Below, piece by piece: positions 6,782-22,213 of a DNA stretch of 64,000 nt; within the stretch, counting starts at the first letter, position 1, and each line of letters begins with the position of its first letter. The stretch lies in NCBI GenBank assembly GCA_017991415.1, contig JAGOQR010000002.1, forward strand, positions 204,736 through 268,735. The letters run 5' to 3'. This DNA comes from Candidatus Magasanikiibacteriota bacterium. Lineage in GTDB: Bacteria; Patescibacteriota; Patescibacteriia; Magasanikbacterales; GWA2-37-8. Below the pieces are notes generated by a model. That model saw nothing but the letters and a program-made list of their open reading frames with translations. It ran no database searches and had not been told where the DNA came from. Position numbers and translations under genes: made by a program.

Positions 6782-8812
6782 CTATTTATGTGCAGCCTTG
6801 TATTTTGCAATTGCTGCCTTCGTAATAGGGCCTCTATACCCAGTTGCCGGGACAGTGGCAGGAAAGAAACCAAGAGCTTTGAGTTCTGTTTGTAACCGCT
6901 TTACAGCCTCATTTCTTTGACCAAGCTTGAAGGCAAACTTAACAAGCTCATCCACGGTCATAGATGGTGCTTGATCACCAAGATATTTAGTTACTGCAGC
7001 TCGAGTCATATTGCCATAATATCGGGTCGGCACAAAATCTGCTGGGAAATACCCTTGTTTTTGCAATTCGATTTGCAGCTGTCTGATTCCATCGGCATAG
7101 GTATAACAATCGTATTTCAAAATTAACTCATCTATAATTGAAATTTTTTCACCTAATACTTCACCTGCAGGGGTAGGTGTAGGTACAACCACTGGAGCTA
7201 CCGGAATCACAGGTACTGGCAAAGGTCCTTGAGAAGCACTGCTTACTGGGAATGCTGTTCCACCACCACAGTTATTCGTACAACTACCGCCAGTTGACAC
7301 ATCATCATCGGTAATAGTATAAGTATGACCACTTTGCACACTGTCGTTTCCATCAGCATCGTTTACAGTCACACCACTAGTCAAGCTCGCTAAAGAAAAT
7401 ATAATGGTTCTATTACCATCAACTAGTGTATTGTTTAATATTGCAAAAGCTGGCAGAGCAATTGCGGTAGAAGTAGTGCCATCATAGGTACCACTTGGAA
7501 TAGTTACTGTTGTGGTAACTGGATATACAAAATCTGTTCCGTTGACTGCCGTACCGCCCGTAATAGTTACTACTACAGAAGCTGGATCTGCAAAAATACC
7601 GTCTACTAATAATAATGGAAAATTATCCGCTACTGCTTCATTTGTAGAAGCGGCTGTTTCAACAGAAAATTCAACATACCGATTTGCTGACGAACAAAGC
7701 GAAGCTACACCACCATCAGTAATAGTCCAGGCATTTGGTGGAGCTGTAAGTGTATTATGAGCACCGACTGCACAGTATGTAAGGGCACCCACATCTAAAG
7801 GGACATCTGGTTCAACTACTTGACTCGACCAGCCAATCAACGCCAGATCGTAGTTAGCAGTAGACATGCCAGAATCTTGTAACAAAAGAGTCATGTCTAT
7901 AACGCGTCCGATATTCCAACTACCTATATTCTGATTAAAGGCAGAGGCTTTATAAAACATCCTGCTCATATCTGTAGTGCTTGCTGTATTCCAAGCGCTA
8001 ATATTCTGATTAAAATTACTTGCCATTTCAAACATATGGCTCATATTAACAACCCGTGCAGTATTCCAACTACCGATATTCTGATTAAAGGCAGAGGCTG
8101 TTTTGAACATGTAGCTCATATCAGTAACTTGGGAAACATCCCAACTACCAATATTCTGATTAAAGGCCAAAGCGGCCACAAACATAGCGTACATATTTGT
8201 TACATTGCTTGTATTCCAACCACCAATATTCTGATTGAAAGCCAAAGCTCCTGAAAACATACCCGACATATCGGTAACATTCGACACATCCCAAGCACTG
8301 ATATCATGATTAAAGACAGCCGCTTCATTAAACATGCCACTCATACTGGTTACTGAGCTTAGATTTGGCACATCAGTTGCGATAACATTCATATTAACAG
8401 CTCCAGCAAAAGCAAAGGCCATAGATGTCCAGACATTGGTTCCCCACTGATCAACTGATAATAACTTTTCTACATCACCAGCATAATTAAAAAATATCTG
8501 AGGAAACGTACCGCTAATTACAATCGTATAAGTACCTGCAACTGGGTATACACAAGTAACAGCTGTGGTTTGAGCAGAAAATTCATCGATAGTATCGTTA
8601 TCACAATCTACATTGTAGTTGTACCCTGCACCGTTTGTAGGAATAGTAAAAGCAGTGGATGATGAAGAACCTGGATTATCGGTCTTCACCGTGATTATAA
8701 AATCATTTAGTGTGGCTGCCTGCACTGTTTGTGCTACACCAAAAGCCATAGCGCCAAGTGCTAAAAACGCTGCTATAAATACCCCTGCCCTATTTCTATT
8801 TTTTACTTGCAT
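6782..8812 (-). CDS. Secreted DUF285-repeat (Mycoplasma-type) protein with a Calx-beta-like domain and a C-terminal tandem PG_binding_1-like module
   Basis: Signal peptide, then >=6 units of AFNQNIGSWxVSxVTxMSxMF (DUF285-like motif). A Gly/Pro/Val-rich linker follows, then two C-terminal repeats (IRQLQIELQKQGYFP...YYGNMTRAAVTKY and VKRLQTELKALGFFP...YRGPITKAAIAKY) resembling putative peptidoglycan-binding domain 1. Confidence 0.6.
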   Translation of the reverse strand: MQVKNRNRAGVFIAAFLALGAMAFGVAQTVQAATLNDFIITVKTDNPGSSSSTAFTIPTNGAGYNYNVDCDNDTIDEFSAQTTAVTCVYPVAGTYTIVISGTFPQIFFNYAGDVEKLLSVDQWGTNVWTSMAFAFAGAVNMNVIATDVPNLSSVTSMSGMFNEAAVFNHDISAWDVSNVTDMSGMFSGALAFNQNIGGWNTSNVTNMYAMFVAALAFNQNIGSWDVSQVTDMSYMFKTASAFNQNIGSWNTARVVNMSHMFEMASNFNQNISAWNTASTTDMSRMFYKASAFNQNIGSWNIGRVIDMTLLLQDSGMSTANYDLALIGWSSQVVEPDVPLDVGALTYCAVGAHNTLTAPPNAWTITDGGVASLCSSANRYVEFSVETAASTNEAVADNFPLLLVDGIFADPASVVVTITGGTAVNGTDFVYPVTTTVTIPSGTYDGTTSTAIALPAFAILNNTLVDGNRTIIFSLASLTSGVTVNDADGNDSVQSGHTYTITDDDVSTGGSCTNNCGGGTAFPVSSASQGPLPVPVIPVAPVVVPTPTPAGEVLGEKISIIDELILKYDCYTYADGIRQLQIELQKQGYFPADFVPTRYYGNMTRAAVTKYLGDQAPSMTVDELVKFAFKLGQRNEAVKRLQTELKALGFFPATVPATGYRGPITKAAIAKYKAAHK
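7860..8380 (-). repeat. ~75-bp tandem DNA repeats (about 7 copies) inside the DUF285 gene
   Basis: Recurring ccaactacc[ga]atattctgattaaaggc[ac]ga[ag]gc.. units at ~7918, 7995, 8069, 8143, 8216 and 8293. They are in-frame and encode the DUF285 units. Confidence 0.7.
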
Positions 8813-8980: not shown

Positions 8981-11722
8981 CTATTTGGAAGCCAAATATT
9001 TAGCTACTGCTGCTTTGGTCATAGGACCATAGTACATAGTAACGGCTATACTAGCTGGGAAGAAACCACGTTTTTTAAGCTCTGTTTGAAGACGAGCTAC
9101 ATTGGCACCTCTGCTGCCTACAGTAAGGGTATTTACAAGCTCATCAAAAGACAACACTACAGCATTCTTACTTGCTACATATTTTGCAACAGCTGCTTTG
9201 GTCATAGTGCCATACAAACGAGTTGGCTTGAAGGTCTTGGCAAAGAAGCCTGCTTTTTGCAATTCAACTTGCAACTGCCTTACTTCATCACTTATTGTAC
9301 CTGGTTTTAATTCAGCAATAAGTTCATCGAGCAAGGTTGTTTTAACACCCAAAACTTGTCCACCAAGGTTGCCAGCAGTATCTACAGTAGTACTCACTAC
9401 CACAGAAGCAGTGCCAGCATTATTAAAGAATTTAACAAAAATTTTCTTTTCTCCTGCAGCAGAAGGAAGCTTCCACATAGCAGTTGTTTTGTATGCTTCT
9501 TGAACAGCATTTTCAAAACTAGCATTATTGGATATAGACATGCGAGTTGCAGTGCCGCCAACTAATACCAAGTTAGCAAATGTCATATCACCAACAGTAG
9601 TAAGACTATCTACCTTTACACTTAGATTCTCTCCTTCAAAAGCTCCTGATCCCAAAATAACTGTAGGGATAGCTGAGCCGCCACCAGATGAACCGCCACT
9701 ACTACCACCACCAGAAACAGGAGGAGTAACAACAGCATCATCATCTAAAATAGTAAATGTATAGACAGTACTAGAAGATGGCAAAACTCTTGGATCAACA
9801 CTGCTTACATCGATAGAAATTACTACTGTTTCATTTCCTTCTACACCAACATCTTCGGTTGTAAGAAGTTGAAATACAGTTGAAGTGCTACCAAAAGGTA
9901 TTTCCAACATTCCAGTTGTTGAGGTGCTACCATTGAAAGTAAAATCTGAACTATTAGCTGATCCAGAAATTATATAATGAGCAGATATTTTACCCAAAGC
10001 CAATGCATCAGAAATTAATTTAACACTTACTCCACTGCCTTCTTCTGCAGAAGCGGTTTCTACTTCAAAACCAGCATGGATTGGATCGTGATTTTCGTCA
10101 TCTAAAATAGTAACAGCATGTCGGCGGGCATCACCACTTACAATTTCACCGTTACCGCCAACTGGCAAATCCATAATATATAGCCTCAAAACTTCATTTA
10201 ATTCTACAAGAGCGTCATCTGTTAACACAAGCTCTACGTTTTTACTAGTTTCTCCTGGAGCAAAAGTTAAAGATAAGGTTGAAGATGCATAGTTATGATC
10301 ATCTTGACCAGCGGTACTGTTTGGCAAATCTACACCAACCTCCACAGTTACTGTACGATCATTTGGTCGTGATAGCACAACTGGAATTGCCAAGCTAGTA
10401 ACATTTTCTGACACTACAGAAGAGCTAGACGCAAAGCTAATAACAGAAGTATCATCATCATAAATGGTAAATACTTGACTGGTAATAGGACCAAGAACTG
10501 CGTTTGTTGGGTTAGCAATTTCAATATTAATAGTTTCGTTGGCTTCATCAATATTATCATTGAGAATACCTAAGTTAACATCAGCAAAATTAAGAAGTGA
10601 CGGTATTGTAACCGTAGTCCAGGCTGTAGAAGATCCAGCTGTAAAATCAGCGCCTACACCTTGAGTAGCAGTACCACCAGCAATACGCCATTGGAAAGAA
10701 ACTGATTGAAATGAGGCATAATTAAGATAAGCTCTAAACCCACGATTTAACCCGTCTGATTCAACCACACCATTAGTTGCTGTCTGCAAACTTAGCTCTT
10801 TTACACCATCATTATCTATAATAGTCAAAGCAATAGTTCTGCCATTTGGAACAACTTCAAACACCTCTGGACCACTGTGACGAACATCGGTAATAGTAAT
10901 TATTGCTCTTTCATCACCTTCAACCATCGTATCTTGAACAGTTTGAAAAGGAAGATCAACTTCACCTATACCGGCAGGAATAATAATAGTTCCTAATGTA
11001 GTTGAAGGCGTGTTATTAAAGACAAAATCTGTATTAGCATCTGCAGTACTGCTTACTGCAACCTCATAATCAATCTGAACATCACCATGACTTAGATCAA
11101 GAAAATCTTCATCAAAAAAATTAAGACTAACCGTAAATCCATTACCCTCTTGTATACCTGCAGCACCATTTACAAAACCAACTCGCTTCTGTGTATTATC
11201 ATCATCATCATAAATATCAAAATAGAATGTACCTTGAGTACCTATAAACAAGTTTTCACCGCTACTTGATGTAACACTTGTAATTCTAATTCTTACAAAT
11301 TCGTTACCTTCATTTAAACTATCATTAACTGGGATTAAATTTACACTTATATCTCCACTGCCTGCTGGAACAGTTATAGTTCCTACAGTAGTCGAAGGAG
11401 CATTGTTAAAAACAAAATCATTCATAGGGTCAGCATTGATCTGGCCAGCAGGAGACTGATCCATAACAAACTCATAATTAATGGTCATAGCACCATGACT
11501 CACATCATTTTGATTTGTATCGTCCGTAAAACGGATAACCACTGGATACCCTTGACTATAAGTTTCCATCGTCTGGCTAGCCTGGTATCGAAAATCAACA
11601 TGAATATCGCCTGTTGCAGCTTTAGCCACGTTTGGTACAACACTAGCACCTAAACCAAAAACCAAAGCAAGCAGCATGAGGCCGCTTACAAACTTTTTCG
11701 CTTTTGTTCTTACTTTTTGCAT
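8981..11722 (-). CDS. Large secreted repeat protein (Calx-beta-like domains, GGGSSGG linker) with the same C-terminal tandem PG_binding_1-like anchor module
   Basis: 913 aa with a signal peptide. It has repeated ~100-aa domains (DxxxNDxSHGxxxIxYE..., DETVxITI), a GGGSSGGSSGGGS linker, and the C-terminal repeats VRQLQVELQKAGFF...LYGTMTKAAVAKY and VARLQTELKKRGFFP...YYGPMTKAAVAKY. Confidence 0.6.
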   Translation of the reverse strand: MQKVRTKAKKFVSGLMLLALVFGLGASVVPNVAKAATGDIHVDFRYQASQTMETYSQGYPVVIRFTDDTNQNDVSHGAMTINYEFVMDQSPAGQINADPMNDFVFNNAPSTTVGTITVPAGSGDISVNLIPVNDSLNEGNEFVRIRITSVTSSSGENLFIGTQGTFYFDIYDDDDNTQKRVGFVNGAAGIQEGNGFTVSLNFFDEDFLDLSHGDVQIDYEVAVSSTADANTDFVFNNTPSTTLGTIIIPAGIGEVDLPFQTVQDTMVEGDERAIITITDVRHSGPEVFEVVPNGRTIALTIIDNDGVKELSLQTATNGVVESDGLNRGFRAYLNYASFQSVSFQWRIAGGTATQGVGADFTAGSSTAWTTVTIPSLLNFADVNLGILNDNIDEANETINIEIANPTNAVLGPITSQVFTIYDDDTSVISFASSSSVVSENVTSLAIPVVLSRPNDRTVTVEVGVDLPNSTAGQDDHNYASSTLSLTFAPGETSKNVELVLTDDALVELNEVLRLYIMDLPVGGNGEIVSGDARRHAVTILDDENHDPIHAGFEVETASAEEGSGVSVKLISDALALGKISAHYIISGSANSSDFTFNGSTSTTGMLEIPFGSTSTVFQLLTTEDVGVEGNETVVISIDVSSVDPRVLPSSSTVYTFTILDDDAVVTPPVSGGGSSGGSSGGGSAIPTVILGSGAFEGENLSVKVDSLTTVGDMTFANLVLVGGTATRMSISNNASFENAVQEAYKTTAMWKLPSAAGEKKIFVKFFNNAGTASVVVSTTVDTAGNLGGQVLGVKTTLLDELIAELKPGTISDEVRQLQVELQKAGFFAKTFKPTRLYGTMTKAAVAKYVASKNAVVLSFDELVNTLTVGSRGANVARLQTELKKRGFFPASIAVTMYYGPMTKAAVAKYLASK

Positions 11723-11768
11723 ATTTTTAAAAGCTTATACTTAATTTTTAATTAAAATTTAACTGTGG

Positions 11769-11797
11769 ACTATACCATAAATTTGGCCTTTTGTCAA
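11769..11797 (-). promoter_or_regulatory. sigma70-type promoter TTGACA-17-TATAGT for the 913-aa surface protein gene
   Basis: Minus strand TTGACAaaaggccaaatttatggTATAGT, with the -35 at plus 11792-11797 and the -10 at 11769-11774. Confidence 0.6.
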
Positions 11798-12019
11798 CCC
11801 CTTTGGGGTCGTACAAATACACTTACCCCTAGAAACCTCTAAAGTTACCAATATTTTAACCTATCTTTAGCAGAATTTTAAGAACTGTTAAATATTAACA
11901 TAGGACCAGCAAAAAATCTACCTGACGTCAATATGCAACACCCTTCCCTCTTGCGCCCCAAAGAATAGGGTGCTAAAATATGGATACTTTTATCAAGCCT
12001 CTCACCCCTTAACCAGGCG

Positions 12020-18056: not shown

Positions 18057-18833
18057 CTAATTGTTTTCTGATTCAAACCTGTCTAAAAATTCTTTTCCAA
18101 GTCGCTCGTATGCTTTGGAACCTTTACCGCTTGGATCGTAATGAAAAATACTCTGACCAAAACTTGGCGCCTCCGCAAGTCGTACGGTACGAGGTATTAC
18201 TGAACGAAAAATATTATCTGGAAAAAATTTATACAGCTCATTCATAACTTCGGCAGACAAACTATTGCGAGCATCGTACATAGTAAGCACTGCTCCCAAA
18301 ATTTTTAATTCTGGTTTTAGATTACTACGAATCAATTCTATTGTTTTGAGCAATTGCCCCAAACCTTCCAGCGCATAATATTCTGCTTGTACAGGAATTA
18401 AAATATAATCGGCAGCAATAAGACCGTTGAGCGTTAAGACGCCAAGTGATGGCGGACAATCGATAATAATATAATCGTAGGCATGAGCAACTTCGGACAA
18501 AATTTCATCTAGTTTTTTTTCACGACCTTCTACATTTACCAGCTCTACATTTGCTCCAGCCAAATCTGGTGTAGCAGGTGCTACGCGCAACCCTGCATGC
18601 CCAGTATTTAATACCACGTCGTGTAAGCGCGCTTGACCAGATAAACTATGGTATAAGCCTTGTTCTAATTCTTGATATTTAATTCCTAAACCAGAGGTAG
18701 CATTACCCTGAGGATCTAGATCAACGAGCAGCACAAATTTACCTGTCTCCGCCAAAGCAGCGGCCAAATTTACCGCGGTGGTAGTTTTTCCAACTCCACC
18801 TTTTTGATTCACTACCGAAATTACCTGAGTCAT
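18057..18833 (-). CDS. parA: Chromosome partitioning ATPase ParA/Soj
   Basis: Deviant Walker A VNQKGGVGKTTTAVNLAAALA. The start is set at the internal ATG (MTQVISVV) at 18833. The longer track ORF (to 18956) overlaps the tRNA-Leu gene and adds an implausible hydrophobic leader. Confidence 0.85.
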   Translation of the reverse strand: MTQVISVVNQKGGVGKTTTAVNLAAALAETGKFVLLVDLDPQGNATSGLGIKYQELEQGLYHSLSGQARLHDVVLNTGHAGLRVAPATPDLAGANVELVNVEGREKKLDEILSEVAHAYDYIIIDCPPSLGVLTLNGLIAADYILIPVQAEYYALEGLGQLLKTIELIRSNLKPELKILGAVLTMYDARNSLSAEVMNELYKFFPDNIFRSVIPRTVRLAEAPSFGQSIFHYDPSGKGSKAYERLGKEFLDRFESENN

Positions 18834-18930
18834 ACCAAAATAAAAATCTATAACAAATAGTAAAAATATTATACCACAAAGAACAAAAACAAAAAACTCA
18901 CCAATTTTGATAGTGAGTTTTTTAATGTGT

Positions 18931-19011
18931 GCCGAAGGAGAGAATCGAACTCTCATGGATTTCTCCGCACGATTTTGAGTCGTGTGCGTCTACCAATTCC
19001 GCCACTTCGGC
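18931..19011 (-). tRNA. tRNA-Leu (anticodon CAA), type II with a long variable arm
   Basis: Minus strand GCCGAAGTGGCGGAATTGGTAGACGCACACGACTCAAAATCGTGCGGAGAAATCCATGAGAGTTCGATTCTCTCCTTCGGCA. It has a 7-bp acceptor stem, anticodon loop CUCAAAA, a long variable arm and T-loop TTCGATT. No encoded CCA. Confidence 0.85.
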
Positions 19012-19030: not shown

Positions 19031-19059
19031 ATTATAATCTAGGCTTACTTGTTTGTCAA
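19031..19059 (-). promoter_or_regulatory. Consensus sigma70 promoter TTGACA-17-TATAAT driving tRNA-Leu (and probably parAB)
   Basis: Minus strand TTGACAaacaagtaagcctagatTATAAT, ending ~20 nt upstream of the tRNA 5' end. Confidence 0.7.
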
Positions 19060-19081
19060 TCTAGGGTATAAAAATAATGAA

Positions 19082-19103
19082 CCCAGCGTTGTGACACGCT
19101 GGG
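19082..19103 (-). terminator. GC-rich hairpin CCCAGCGT-TGTGAC-ACGCTGGG followed by a U-rich tract on the minus strand (terminator of the GC-rich island operon)
   Basis: 8-bp perfect stem. The minus-strand downstream sequence is UUCAUUAUUUUUAU. Confidence 0.55.
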
Positions 19104-19175
19104 CAGAACTTCCGCACCTGCAACCAGACCTTGCGATCTCGACCAGGTGACCTTCCCCTCCTTCCGTGCGACTCT

Positions 19176-19523
19176 TCAGCGTCGCTCGCCCAGCGCCTTG
19201 AGCGTCTGGCGAATCGTCTGATGACGACTCGGACTTGAGCTGAGCTTGGCATCTTGAATGGTCTTGGCGACCCCCTCCATGCCAGGACACAGCTCCTGAA
19301 ACCAGTTCGACGCCTCGAAGGCGGCGGCGGCCATCACCTCGTCGGTGTAGGCCAACTGATTCTCCGCCCACTGAGGCAGATGATCGCAGAACACACGAAC
19401 CTTGCTCTGCAGATCTTGGAGCTTGACGAGCTCCGACTGCTGCTTGGCACTGTTGTCGCTGGCGCCCGAAGAGCACGCAGCAACGAGGGACACGATGGCC
19501 GTGACGATGAAGACGGTCTTCAC
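19176..19523 (-). CDS. Small lipoprotein (GC-rich island gene 3), hypothetical
   Basis: Signal peptide plus lipobox (MKTVFIVTAIVSLVAACSSG). A GTG start overlaps the TGA stop of the upstream gene (GTGA). GC3-rich codons. Confidence 0.5.
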   Translation of the reverse strand: MKTVFIVTAIVSLVAACSSGASDNSAKQQSELVKLQDLQSKVRVFCDHLPQWAENQLAYTDEVMAAAAFEASNWFQELCPGMEGVAKTIQDAKLSSSPSRHQTIRQTLKALGERR

Positions 19524-20851
19524 GACTCGTCCTCCCGCTCATTGCCTTCGAGACCCGGAATGACGAACATGCCTCGCATCATCTTCTCCCTCTCCTTCTG
19601 ATCCTTCTTCTTCTGGTCTTCCTTCTTCTGCGAATCGTCCACGAAGTCAGCCAGCTCCTCGTCCCTGCTGTGCTTGAGCTTCACCCACGCATCGCCGGCA
19701 TCGCCGCGCCAGGGGGTCGACGCACTTTCGTTGTCAGCCCCGTAGAACTTGATGACATGGGACACGGACTCCTTACCTCGCTTTGCCTCCATCTCTGCGA
19801 TCGCCATCTTGTGCATGGCGGCGGGGACGAACCTGATGAACCGCAGCGTTTCAGGAGTGGTCCCTTCGGGTGCACCGTTCAACTCGAGCTGAGAACGACG
19901 AGCGACGTAGCCCTCGAGGAGAACCACCATCCGCTCACCCGGCTTGAATTCCACGATTCGGTACTGCCCCATGTCCTCCCCGAACTGCAGGTCCTTCTGA
20001 ACCTCGCCGAGCCGACACGCCTCGAACTGCTCGAGGAGCCACTGCACATTCGAGACGAACGCCTCGATGCTGGTGGTCTGCTTGTCCTGGATCGCCTCCA
20101 AGAAAGCGCGCTTCCAGTTGTGGGTCTTACCTCCGATGCTGTCGAACATGACGCTGATCATGTCGGAGACACCCCCTTCGAGAACATCCAGGTAGACCTG
20201 GCTGTTCTCGGGGTGTTCCCCGTTCGGCAGGCGCACATCGCGCAACTTCGTACGCAACACCTGACCACCGATCGCCACCACCTGCTCCATACCACTCGCA
20301 ACATCCACGATGACCCCGGCAGTCCTGGGCGCGACCGTGGCAATATGCCACGCCTCGCTCTCGAGCGCCTTGGCCCAGGAGGCAACGACCGGCTTGAAGA
20401 ACGCCATACTTCCGAGGAACATCATGTCGGCGAACCCATCGAGCAAGCGCTGCCGATGCATCTTCTCGAGGATCCGACCGATCCGGATGCGCACGAAGGC
20501 CGCGTGCACCCGCTGCCCCAGGAGACCCAACTGCAGGATGATCTTGTCCGTGAGGTTCGCGGCCTGCTCGGCATCGAGCGAACACTCGTCCGTATCACCC
20601 TGCGAGCCGTTGGGACCACAGGGGTCAACCGCATCGACGTAGCCGTCGCCGGTCATCGTGACCTCGCGCGAGCTAGCCGTCACGGGCTGCTTCCTCGGCG
20701 GAAGCCCCTGGGTGAGCGTACGCTTCCCAGGAGCCGACGACGACCGCCGCCGCGCCGAACCACCCGCACCAGCACGGTGCGAGGTGTCGCGAGTAGTGTC
20801 CGCCGCATCATCCGAAGCCGTACCACTGTCCTGAAGCTTGTCGTAGCCCAT
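19520..20851 (-). CDS. Hypothetical ~443-aa protein (GC-rich island gene 2); disordered S/T/G/R-rich N-terminus, KE-rich acidic tail; no recognisable family
   Basis: Long GC3-rich ORF. The most plausible start is ATG at 20851 (MGYDKLQ), preceded by AAGGAAG 7 nt upstream. The track ORF extends to 20938 through the promoter region. No Walker motifs or other signatures recognised. Confidence 0.5.
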   Translation of the reverse strand: MGYDKLQDSGTASDDAADTTRDTSHRAGAGGSARRRSSSAPGKRTLTQGLPPRKQPVTASSREVTMTGDGYVDAVDPCGPNGSQGDTDECSLDAEQAANLTDKIILQLGLLGQRVHAAFVRIRIGRILEKMHRQRLLDGFADMMFLGSMAFFKPVVASWAKALESEAWHIATVAPRTAGVIVDVASGMEQVVAIGGQVLRTKLRDVRLPNGEHPENSQVYLDVLEGGVSDMISVMFDSIGGKTHNWKRAFLEAIQDKQTTSIEAFVSNVQWLLEQFEACRLGEVQKDLQFGEDMGQYRIVEFKPGERMVVLLEGYVARRSQLELNGAPEGTTPETLRFIRFVPAAMHKMAIAEMEAKRGKESVSHVIKFYGADNESASTPWRGDAGDAWVKLKHSRDEELADFVDDSQKKEDQKKKDQKEREKMMRGMFVIPGLEGNEREDES

Positions 20852-20928
20852 GGCACACTTCCTTGGGATGCGACGAAGCACCCCTATTTCACACGGGTTG
20901 GTTTGAACAACTTTGCAAACTAATAGTA

Positions 20929-20957
20929 GTCTTACCACGTTTTACCCATTTTGTCAA
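20929..20957 (-). promoter_or_regulatory. Putative promoter (TTGACAAA -35, TGgTAAGAC extended -10) for island gene 2, located in an AT-rich spacer
   Basis: Minus strand TTGACAaaatgggtaaaacgTGgTAAGAC. The -35 is identical to other host promoters in the window. Confidence 0.35.
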
Positions 20958-21008
20958 TGTAACCACGTCCGATTTAAATTCAAAAAATAAAAATGTATAA
21001 AAAAAATA

Positions 21009-21036
21009 AAGTAGTTTATTATAATAAACTACTTTA
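21009..21036 (-). terminator. Perfect 28-nt AT-rich palindrome AAAGTAGTTTATTATAATAAACTACTTT followed by a U-run on the minus strand (terminator of island gene 1)
   Basis: Stem of ~12 bp. The minus-strand downstream sequence is AUUUUUUUUAUACAUUUUUAUUUUUUG. Confidence 0.55.
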
Positions 21037-21099
21037 TAAAGTCCACGATAACCTCTTGCTTGGCACGCGTCGTGGTTGCACGCGCCAAATTGTTGTCCT

Positions 21100-22104
21100 C
21101 TACACCAAACCAAAGAGCACTGCTGAAGCTAGCGAAGTGACCAGAAGCGCCACGCCAGCGATTAGCACCAACCGATTGAATCGGCTAGGCTGCTCAAGCT
21201 GCTCAACAGGCGCGGGCAAAGTCGGCTCGCAGAGCACATGATCAGGCAACCGCCCTCTCACGCACAGGTAGTGAGCCCCAGCACCGATATGGTGCTGCAT
21301 GTCCACCCAGATGAGCAGAACAAGTTTCCGCAACTTTTCGGGGAAGCGCGGCAATCCATCTCGCCACACATTCGTCTTGGCGAGTGCGTGAAGGCACAGA
21401 TCTTGCCAATTCACCTTCACCACGAGCGAGCCCTCCGAACTATCGTTTACGGTCGTGGTCCAAGCACCGTCTGGCGCCGCTTCATCGAGGAGGCGCTTCA
21501 ATTCCTCGAGAAATCCCAGCCAAGAAAGTTCCAGTGCCACCTGAACGGTTGGCATACTGGCCTCCTTACTTGGCAAGATTGGTATTGCAAACCGCACAGT
21601 CTGCAATGCAAATGCAGGACTGGGAGGCGGCGGCGTTTCAACAAACAGCAGTGTCCTTCGACGGGCGGGCTTGAGATCTTCATCACGAATACGATTCGTA
21701 TGACCCTCATCGTCCAACACCGCTACGACAGCACCGCTGTTCACTGCATCACGAGTATCGTCATCAAAGGAGCCGATGACACCTCCCCCAAGGGAGAGGA
21801 GCTCATCAAGCGACGTGCTATTCGGAGGCCGCAACGGACCACCCGGCGTCGGCGGCAAGCTGCTGGCTTCGGTTGACTCTGCATCAACCTGCATCGGCAC
21901 ATCCTGAACCAATATTTCTGCCGGCACAGGAGTACGAACCGTCTCAGCACCCTCACCAAACGCCTCAGCCCTTTCTCCCAGGGCAGAATCAGGATTTTTC
22001 ACCATGACCATTGCCTCTCTGGGAGATTCCACTGCGCTTGTGGCGCGGTCTCCCAACCTTTTTCCATTGTAAGCTCTTTTCTCTTGGTGCACTTCGCACA
22101 ACAA
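21100..22104 (-). CDS. Hypothetical C-terminally membrane-anchored protein (GC-rich island gene 1); Pro/acidic-rich N-terminal half
   Basis: GC3-rich ORF. The C-terminal 22 residues (LVLIAGVALLVTSLASAVLFGLV) form a TM helix at the extreme C-terminus. The track start is a TTG; an ATG with a GAGAGG SD at ~22017 (MVMVKNPD) is more plausible. No recognisable domain. Confidence 0.45.
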   Translation of the reverse strand: MLCEVHQEKRAYNGKRLGDRATSAVESPREAMVMVKNPDSALGERAEAFGEGAETVRTPVPAEILVQDVPMQVDAESTEASSLPPTPGGPLRPPNSTSLDELLSLGGGVIGSFDDDTRDAVNSGAVVAVLDDEGHTNRIRDEDLKPARRRTLLFVETPPPPSPAFALQTVRFAIPILPSKEASMPTVQVALELSWLGFLEELKRLLDEAAPDGAWTTTVNDSSEGSLVVKVNWQDLCLHALAKTNVWRDGLPRFPEKLRKLVLLIWVDMQHHIGAGAHYLCVRGRLPDHVLCEPTLPAPVEQLEQPSRFNRLVLIAGVALLVTSLASAVLFGLV

Positions 22105-22121
22105 GAAAGAGCTATAGAAGT

Positions 22122-22151
22122 ATTGGTAGCAAAATCACACCATTTTGTCAA
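22122..22151 (-). promoter_or_regulatory. Putative promoter (-35 TTGACAAA) for island gene 1
   Basis: Minus strand TTGACAaaatggtgtgattttgcTACCAA. The -35 is at plus 22146-22151 and the -10 is weak. Confidence 0.3.
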
Positions 22152-22174
22152 TACTTCTAACCCACTATTTTAAT

Positions 22175-22213
22175 CAAAAAACCCTACTTTGAGCACTACT
22201 CAAGTAGGGTTTT
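22175..22213 (-). terminator. asnS terminator hairpin AAAACCCTACTT..AAGTAGGGTTTTTT
   Basis: Stem CCCTACTT/AAGTAGGG followed by a U-run on the minus strand, directly after the asnS stop. Confidence 0.6.

Follow-up and report, generated by a model that had tools for sequence, protein, structure and literature searches.

A 64,000-nt stretch of contig JAGOQR010000002.1 (the window) from a Candidatus Magasanikiibacteriota bacterium, a member of the candidate phyla radiation (CPR), carries a compositionally foreign island of about 3.1 kb (19.06-22.14 kb) between asnS and a tRNA-Leu gene. The island holds three minus-strand genes, here called genes 1, 2 and 3 (Table 1). The island is almost certainly real and old, a horizontal acquisition that has since been passed on vertically and kept by selection. 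The best reading of its content, to which we give a probability of roughly one half, is a domesticated cassette of effector and immunity genes, accompanied by an orphan tail-anchored protein. By this reading, high-GC DNA would have entered the asnS/tRNA-Leu spacer of an ancestral magasanikbacterium, and copies of the -35 region of the tRNA-Leu promoter would have come to head one transcription unit with gene 1 and another with genes 2 and 3. Gene 2 would be a toxin-like effector acting on the cell envelope or membrane, and gene 3 would encode its immunity protein, a protective lipoprotein. CPR genomes are tiny, and a life attached to other cells is assumed for these bacteria.

The island stands out by composition. 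In 300-nt windows the GC content rises from 0.34-0.45 in the flanks to 0.51-0.68 over approximately 19050-22050, and the sole dip inside the island, to 0.40, falls in the AT-rich spacer between genes 1 and 2. In 1-kb windows across the 64 kb, the three island windows lie at 0.55-0.60 GC and the other 61 at 0.33-0.43. The sliding-window profile is not uniform, and it upholds the GC jump reported in an initial annotation of this DNA; the flanks are at about 38-40% GC, not the ~36% given there. The GC content of third codon positions (GC3) is 0.57 in gene 1, 0.80 in gene 2 and 0.78 in gene 3, as compared to 0.27-0.33 in asnS, parA, parB and recO, in line with the GC3-rich codons described earlier. 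Base-normalized tetranucleotide usage, the profile that had been asked for in the same annotation, gives r=0.39 between the island and the rest of the window; 20 host chunks of 3 kb average 0.745, the lowest being 0.56. The island correlates at 0.63-0.74 with the contexts of gene 2 homologues in other genomes (0.74 with locus L003; L and P labels denote comparison loci and proteins). Its tetranucleotide signature is foreign.

The three minus-strand open reading frames (ORFs) are present as first described. Homologues, the ratio of nonsynonymous to synonymous substitution rates (dN/dS) and GC3 all agree, and the minus strand is therefore taken as coding. The abundant antisense ORFs are by-products of high GC, as had been supposed. 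One of them, of 417 aa, is antisense to gene 2 (19670-20923, plus strand), and several of 100-200 aa are found elsewhere in the island.

A chimeric or contaminated assembly, in which a high-GC fragment of another organism was misjoined into a CPR contig, had been left open; the sharp GC change at both borders and the source, a metagenome-assembled genome, could suggest one, but this explanation is refuted by junction-crossing contigs, diverged copies of the island and the matching divergence of gene 1 and asnS, with the host-type promoter copies inside the island a further point against it, and we consider it highly improbable. The window also forms part of contig JAHZTO010000001.1 of GCA_020049755.1, and identical island proteins have been deposited as 'Candidatus Magasanikbacteria bacterium'. 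Logan contigs of SRR11088469 match window positions 27445-21008 and 21035-18976 at 100% identity and therefore cross both island junctions, their only break being a 32-nt perfect palindrome. The asnS/gene 1 junction was recovered likewise from SRR11088468 and SRR25018320. Diverged copies of the island with the same GC jump are present in SRR19905786 (L005) and SRR22388221 (L006). In L005, an asnS gene of 89% nucleotide identity (98% at the protein level) is followed by a gene 1 homologue of 63-67% identity, and GC rises from 0.38 to 0.58 at this junction. In L006, protein identity is 72-75% for a partial gene 2 and 71% for gene 3. The island is thus carried by two diverged lineages, in one of them (L005) at the same site.

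These copies also date the island. Nei-Gojobori estimates between the window and L005 gave a dS of 0.68 for asnS (dN/dS 0.019) and 0.73 for gene 1 (dN/dS 0.30), and therefore an equal divergence time for the island and its host neighbor. Between the window and L006, dS was 0.94 for gene 2 (dN/dS 0.17) and 0.65 for gene 3 (dN/dS 0.30). The island is old rather than recent: it was already in the common ancestor, it has co-diverged with asnS by vertical descent to a dS of ~0.7, and purifying selection acts on each of the three genes (dN/dS 0.17-0.30). The GC3 of gene 2 varies by lineage, from 0.80 in the window to 0.65 over the partial L006 copy, a gap that would fit slow drift to host composition.

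Relatives were searched for with AsnS as the query, using one genome per GTDB species. In the four closest representatives by AsnS identity (L009, 87%; L074, 84%; L010, 83%; L011, 83%) the gene order is recO-asnS-tRNA-Leu(CAA)-parA-parB. Only 221-948 nt separate asnS from parA there, and genes 1-3 are absent from the asnS-tRNA-Leu-parA locus. The comparison with related CPR genomes that the initial annotation had proposed thus finds an empty site in all four. In L074 and L009 the tRNA-Leu promoter (ATTGACAAA...) starts 8-13 nt past the asnS stop codon. The 3.1 kb of foreign DNA entered the asnS/tRNA-Leu spacer in the ancestor of a small Magasanikbacteria clade.

The promoter elements at the island point the same way. 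The 9-mer ATTGACAAA, from the -35 region of the tRNA-Leu promoter, has four exact copies in the 64 kb, and three of the four are at the island on the minus strand, at both borders and once inside. The 13-mer ATTGACAAAATGG has two exact copies in the window, one 5' of gene 1 and one 5' of gene 2. The gene 1 element sits where the island-free relatives have their tRNA-Leu promoter. Its alignment to the promoters of L074, L009 and L010 extends the match to further positions, and the L005 copy aligns with it as well. The tRNA-Leu promoter of the window matches the consensus at 12/12 positions, as first annotated. Host-type promoters had also been assigned to genes 1 and 2. The TTGACA boxes of that proposal hold, each within the identical 13-mer, but the -10 hexamers are weak (TACCAA for gene 1 and TAAGAC for gene 2, neither of which passes a consensus scan), and these elements are therefore only candidate promoters. 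From this arrangement, the foreign DNA would have landed between the tRNA-Leu promoter and the tRNA, and promoter copies now head its transcription units. Acquisition from a high-GC donor, as initially suggested, is supported by the foreign composition, the high-GC homologues described below, the empty site in relatives and the tRNA-Leu -35 copies.

The island resembles tRNA-associated genomic islands in that foreign DNA lies beside a tRNA gene at a locus that varies among relatives. It differs from them in lying on the 5' (promoter) side of the tRNA and in having no integrase and no repeat of a tRNA 3' fragment. The earlier statement that the island lacks an integrase or transposase agrees with both the ORF list and the library scans, which contain no integrase, transposase or recombinase among the island ORFs or their matches, and the genes that flank the island are housekeeping genes. 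Flanking direct repeats had also been said to be absent; this is so for att-like repeats, none of which occurs at the island, but not for the 9-mer ATTGACAAA at both borders, the repeats there being that 9-mer and the promoter 13-mer only. The sequence GCGAAGTG, 3' of the gene 1 promoter, was considered as a tRNA-Leu 5' fragment and dropped, as it is only an 8-mer and is not conserved in L005.

For gene 2, a word-indexed search of 5.8 billion proteins returned one distant relative (P0002, 27% identity, E 8e-14). A profile built from the two sequences and run against 1.84 billion cluster representatives (E<=1e-3) revealed a family of 45 protein clusters, all unannotated. Most members are 360-410 aa long, carry PGKRT(L/R)T at approximately residue 25-45 and have the whole C-terminal region in common. 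The corresponding motif of gene 2, APGKRTLTQGLPP, is unchanged in P0002 and occurs in most of the family. The N-terminus M-G/S-Y-D is conserved in homologues, for which reason the ATG start at 20851, as chosen in the initial annotation, is retained. The homologues are found only on contigs of 62-73% GC (0.62-0.73 across their contexts), and a search of JGI metagenomes with a CPR-only alignment returned no relatives.

An AlphaFold2 (AF2) model of gene 2 from 38 sequences (predicted local distance difference test, pLDDT, 69.8; predicted template modeling score, pTM, 0.63) starts with a disordered region (residues 1-90), continues with a helical bundle (94-278) and then a small alpha/beta domain (295-370), and ends in a long C-terminal helix rich in Lys and Glu, in agreement with the disordered N-terminus and Lys/Glu-rich tail noted from the sequence. 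Residues 1-90 have a pLDDT of 40-64 and no secondary structure, and 74% of them are polar or disorder-promoting. The fold gave nothing specific in PDB or BFVD, the family profile had no match among PDB sequences, and neither a conserved catalytic motif nor a signal peptide or transmembrane (TM) segment was found in gene 2. Its relatives do have a conserved hydrophobic helix that contains Gly and Pro (E.IF..VT.AIIGP.AG).

Genes 1-3 had no match in Pfam, PHROGs, NCBIfam or PADLOC, and to that extent the earlier view that no protein of the island can be placed in a known family stands. It does not stand for gene 2, which its N-terminal motif ties to effectors that carry eCIS_core (PF13699, DUF4157, HExxH), a domain of extracellular contractile injection system (eCIS) toxins. 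Three homologues (P0032, P0035 and P0042) have the motif, then eCIS_core, then a gene 2-like C-terminal domain that aligns with approximately positions 68-340 of the gene 2 profile. To see if the motif itself accompanies eCIS_core, JGI metagenome contigs were scanned blindly with a DNA pattern for PGKRTLTQGL. The scan gave seven loci of 65-76% GC, in all of which the motif is near the N-terminus of an ORF. Six of these ORFs were long enough to scan; eCIS_core follows straight after the motif in four (E 1e-13 to 1e-27), and the other two have the cell-wall-directed domains CHAP and PG_binding_1. The same pattern was not found in viral contigs.

DUF4157 marks eCIS toxins and is N-terminal to diverse toxin domains (PMC8213781). 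In the cargo of these systems, a disordered loading sequence at the N-terminus precedes an optional DUF4157 and a C-terminal effector domain that varies (bioRxiv 10.64898/2026.05.27.728243), and many eCIS-associated toxins are themselves without DUF4157 (PMC11297309). Gene 2 is like the eCIS-associated toxins, for example AlgoCIS Cgo1 and Cgo2, in its disordered N-terminus followed by a variable C-terminal domain, in a PGKRTLTQGL motif that is also present in eCIS_core proteins, in three homologues whose related domain stands behind eCIS_core, and in family members on high-GC environmental bacterial contigs. In contrast to those toxins, gene 2 has no DUF4157 of its own and neither a DUF4157 gene nor an injection-system operon nearby, its C-terminal family has no recognized fold, and its host is a CPR bacterium. 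With moderate confidence, gene 2 is assigned to the polymorphic effectors of injection-system type that are associated with DUF4157. A further comparison is with the Streptomyces CIS effectors such as Sle1, which have membrane-inserting helices and a gene beside the sheath gene (bioRxiv 10.1101/2025.11.06.686954). Like Sle1, gene 2 is largely helical and without DUF4157, and its L003 and L089 relatives have a hydrophobic helical segment and lie beside a putative sheath cluster; unlike Sle1, gene 2 has no long tape-measure-like coiled coil, and no similarity in sequence is claimed.

The contexts of the gene 2 homologues bear on both this class and the donor. A conserved, unannotated cluster lies beside the homologue in L003 (6954-16138) and L089 (2340-11927), both on contigs of 62% GC, with proteins of ~180, 391/563, 239, 255, 1242/1244, 256, 135, 295 and 730 aa. 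At its C-terminal end, the 1242-aa protein of L003 has a sub-threshold match to Phage_sheath_1C (residues 1150-1241 against profile positions 7-102 out of 104; E=0.03), and this cluster may represent a contractile tail or injection machine that has diverged very far. At L094 the neighbors include an integrase, a repressor and a phage-family gene; L092 is chromosomal, with a TonB-family gene and genes for Ser/Thr kinase and FHA proteins; and L091 lies beside large helicase genes. Elsewhere, the gene 2 family is thus on high-GC bacterial and phage-like contigs. The actinobacterial donor suggested in the initial annotation is not shown. The TonB-family gene of L092 points to a diderm; we infer that the donor was a high-GC bacterium, or a phage or injection-system element of such a bacterium.

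Gene 3 supplies the second half of the proposed cassette. Its signal peptide, MKTVFIVTAIVSLVAAC, has hydrophobic residues 1-22 and the lipobox VAAC, the Cys of which is conserved in L006, and the protein has two further conserved cysteines. The GTG start overlaps the gene 2 stop codon by 4 nt (GTGA). Both the lipoprotein assignment and this overlap had been proposed from the sequence, and both are kept in L006. At all seven gene 2-family loci with downstream sequence, the next gene is small and encodes a protein with a lipobox or an N-terminal anchor; in most cases it overlaps the stop codon, and most of the proteins have two cysteines. L090 was left out of this count, its contig breaking off shortly after the next ORF begins. 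The partner is 115 aa in the window (gene 3), 114 aa in L006, 129 aa in L003 (followed by a 126-aa lipoprotein), 128 aa in L089, 125 aa in L091 (a lipoprotein), 155 aa in L092, 121 aa in L094 and 140 aa in L102. A pattern of an anchor, a first Cys and then W-x(1-4)-[LIA]-C is present in 5/7 independent partners, versus 0.6% of 1434 ORFs of similar size. The pattern was fixed before L102 was fetched, and the L102 partner then matched it (FTCD...PWELC). The partner proteins of the gene 2 family are probably disulfide-bonded. As a separate observation, the L094 partner (11488-11853) matches PHROG 2372, a family without assigned function (E 1.3e-4), the only library match of any partner.

In the classic layout of envelope-acting toxin/immunity systems, the effector gene is directly followed by a gene for an extracytoplasmic partner. 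Genes 2 and 3 are like polymorphic toxin/immunity pairs, such as those of envelope-acting type VI secretion system effectors, in that a small, often overlapping gene for an anchored or exported partner directly follows gene 2, and in that the pairing is kept in very divergent gene 2 homologues although the partner is fast-evolving. They are unlike such pairs in that the kinship of the partners is seen only as a pattern and that no secretion apparatus was seen in the 64 kb of host DNA covered. We give somewhat less than an even chance to genes 2 and 3 being an effector/immunity pair that acts at the envelope. The envelope or membrane is named as the target because of the hydrophobic Gly/Pro helix of the gene 2 relatives and the extracytoplasmic partner. 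The earlier suggestion of an envelope-associated module is compatible with the tail anchor of gene 1, the lipoprotein of gene 3 and that same helix. Two motif-bearing effectors outside the gene 2 family, L096 (1423-1974; PG_binding_1) and L100 (4675-5613; eCIS_core), also adjoin a lipoprotein gene, which in L096 is downstream on the same strand and in L100 is on the opposite strand, with the lipoboxes LAAC and LSGC, respectively. This suggests that lipoprotein partners are common for the PGKRTLTQGL effector class.

Several results weigh against the cassette reading. For gene 2, eCIS_core is present in only 3/38 homologues. Pfam detects no DUF4157 in gene 2 or elsewhere in the island, and none is encoded within two genes of gene 2, the neighbors being asnS and tRNA-Leu/parA. 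No injection-system genes are present in the annotated flanks (L001), which contain only genes for ribosomal proteins, SecY, Adk, RecO, AsnS, ParAB, RelA and GyrA, the DNA inspected being 64 kb of the genome. No canonical injection-system operon was detected by Pfam in the contexts of the gene 2 family, and a literature search brought up no description of such systems for Patescibacteria. The sheath match of the L003 protein covers the full-length profile, yet only at the E value given above, and this protein had no match in PDB by sequence or profile. The hydrophobic helix of the relatives is weaker in gene 2 itself, which has no segment of KD19>=1.6. For gene 3, a hidden Markov model built from six partners ranked it second of 411 window ORFs at E=1.3, which is not significant, BLAST of gene 3 against the partner proteins was likewise not significant, and the cysteine pattern was partly defined after the sequences had been seen. 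For gene 1, no homologue was found outside the CPR clade, and its GC3 of 0.57 is below that of genes 2 and 3.

Three other accounts of the island take it as a genuine acquisition. In one, which we consider unlikely, it is an acquired defense: gene 3 would protect the episymbiont from injected effectors of this family, and gene 2 would be retained only through linkage or addiction. Other bacteria are known to have orphan immunity islands, and both the conserved effector/partner pairing and the lack of a visible injection apparatus near the island would suit one. A pure immunity island, however, would be expected to lose or truncate its effector, and gene 2 is full length, keeps its motif, has its own promoter copy and shows the lowest dN/dS of the three genes (0.17).

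A second account, also improbable in our estimate, holds that the three genes encode a non-toxic envelope or host-attachment module, a surface complex for episymbiosis whose likeness to effector N-termini would reflect shared ancestry only. All three proteins, or their relatives, have membrane or envelope features, the N-terminal half of gene 1 is fast-evolving, and no catalytic motif or toxin fold was found. Gene 2 lacks a signal peptide or TM segment, though, its relatives are C-terminal modules behind DUF4157, and a coupled gene for a small anchored partner is typical of toxin/immunity pairs.

Least probable of the three is a leftover lysis or membrane module, brought in from a phage that infected a high-GC diderm, with gene 2 lysis- or holin-like and gene 3 spanin-like, possibly reused for envelope remodeling. 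The phage-family genes, integrase and repressor of L094 would fit such an origin, as would L003, where the gene 2 homologue is followed by an N-terminal-TM coiled-coil protein and then a lipoprotein, like an i-spanin/o-spanin pair, beside the putative tail-sheath cluster. That pair of TM protein and lipoprotein occurs in L003 alone, however, and the window has the lipoprotein only. Pfam and PHROG find muralytic, holin and spanin families in no member of the gene 2 family, the N-terminal motif is associated with DUF4157 effectors and not with lysis proteins, and members are also found in plain chromosomal contexts. CPR cells are not known to have an outer membrane, so that a spanin would lack its target; selection on the genes is nonetheless purifying.

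Under the preferred reading, a domesticated effector/immunity cassette, gene 1 is the least certain component. The TTG at 22104 to which its ORF extends 5', and which the initial annotation had taken as the start, is unlikely; the ATG at 22005, used by NCBI (P0003) and preceded by GAGAGG, is preferred. The acidic, Pro-rich N-terminal half and the C-terminal TM anchor described for gene 1 were found as such. The N-terminal half evolves fast and is probably disordered, the C-terminal domain (approximately residues 190-262) is strongly conserved and has four cysteines, and the only hydrophobic segment is a single C-terminal TM helix at residues 276-301. The sole homologue is the L005 copy. An AF2 model from these two sequences was unusable (pLDDT 37). 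Kinship to the genes 5' of gene 2 homologues (L003, 243 aa; L089, 233 aa; L090) was tried and set aside, as BLAST gave E values of 0.02-0.4 only and homology is not claimed. Because of its lower GC3, gene 1 may have a different history than genes 2 and 3. It may be a lineage-specific tail-anchored membrane protein, either a partner in the cassette or unrelated cargo of the same transfer. In L005 (1603-1760) the homologue can start at an ATG (MEKGWES...) whose equivalent in the window is out of frame and hits a stop (22005-22104), and therefore an indel separates the lineages at the 5' end of gene 1; the window protein probably starts 30-50 codons later.

The island appears to be transcribed as two units, gene 1 and the translationally coupled genes 2 and 3, each with a -35 copy and an end hairpin. 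Upstream, the asnS terminator forms the border of the island as first described, and L005 has an equivalent hairpin with another stem sequence. Two structures follow gene 1. A 30-nt stretch with a GC hairpin, TTTGGCGCGTGCAACCACGACGCGTGCCAA, is identical in the window and L005, the adjacent coding DNA being 74% identical, and it is more conserved than a plain terminator would need. The AT-rich palindrome proposed earlier as the gene 1 terminator is confirmed as perfect and followed by a U run, but it is slightly larger than the 28 nt reported, and in L005 it has two base-pair changes, both compensatory, that keep the stem. The RNA fold spanning these hairpins has z = -5.8 relative to shuffles, and together they are most simply read as a terminator region. 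The GC hairpin terminator after gene 3 was located as annotated. An Rfam scan of the island found tRNA only.

Table 1. Features of the island and its borders (window coordinates)
Feature	Position	Strand	Description
asnS intrinsic terminator	22178..22213	-	perfect 12-nt inverted repeat AAAACCCTACTT/AAGTAGGGTTTT and T run; host-side border
gene 1 promoter element ATTGACAAAATGG	22140..22152	-	candidate; -35 TTGACA at 22146-22151
gene 1	21100..22005	-	301 aa; NCBI ATG 22005 (P0003), GAGAGG ribosome-binding site
GC-rich hairpin	21059..21089	-	just past the gene 1 stop codon
AT-rich palindrome	21006..21037	-	perfect, 16+16 nt, and U run; probable gene 1 terminator
gene 2/3 promoter element	20946..20958	-	candidate; second exact copy of ATTGACAAAATGG
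gene 2	19520..20851	-	443 aa, ATG 20851; effector-like
N-terminal motif APGKRTLTQGLPP of gene 2	20696..20734	-	residues 40-52, in the disordered region
gene 3	19176..19523	-	115-aa predicted lipoprotein, GTG start
gene 2/3 operon terminator	19081..19104	-	GC hairpin, 9-bp stem with 6 GC pairs, T-rich tail
consensus tRNA-Leu promoter	19031..19060	-	TTGACA-17-TATAAT, 12/12; other island border
ATTGACAAA copies	22144-22152, 20950-20958, 19052-19060	-	5' of gene 1; 5' of gene 2; tRNA-Leu promoter
tRNA-Leu(CAA)	18929..19011	-	host gene directly after asnS in island-free relatives

Among more distant Magasanikbacteria the same locus varies, with inserts of 1-6 kb between asnS and parA. In L052 (Magasanikbacteria, AsnS 74%) a different GC-rich insert (10050-11850; 0.60-0.70 versus 0.43 GC) encodes a 599-aa WD40 beta-propeller protein (ORF 9970-11769, plus strand), and high-GC DNA seems to have landed at this locus repeatedly. 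In L010, positions 8355-8540 contain a tRNA-Leu-type promoter, a 13-nt 5' fragment of tRNA-Leu (GCCAAAGTGGCGG), ~130 nt of GC-richer, hairpin-forming sequence and then a complete tRNA-Leu; the arrangement looks like an insertion scar at the same promoter/tRNA junction. On the other side of the tRNA, the longest parA ORF of the window (18057-18956; 299 aa, ATG 18956) overlaps the tRNA-Leu gene and a terminator-like hairpin (18890-18924), and the true ParA start is probably an internal Met before QVISVVNQKGG, as in L052.

The island is a clean, datable case of selected foreign genes in a CPR genome, and it illustrates a route by which foreign genes may come under host control, through copies of a neighboring tRNA promoter element. 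By the resemblances set out above, the locus would connect a lineage of the CPR with the effectors of phage-tail-like injection systems, and it defines a previously unannotated family of putative effector domains with a cognate anchored partner. A more speculative and, in our judgment, unlikely extension is that an ultra-small CPR episymbiont captured an envelope-attacking effector together with its immunity lipoprotein from a high-GC bacterium or the phage-tail-like machine of one, held on to both to a dS of ~0.7 under host promoter copies, and uses the effector to attack or manipulate its host cell without a contractile apparatus, possibly with gene 1 as a membrane partner. If this were true, the C-terminal domain of gene 2 would represent a new class of membrane-active toxin.

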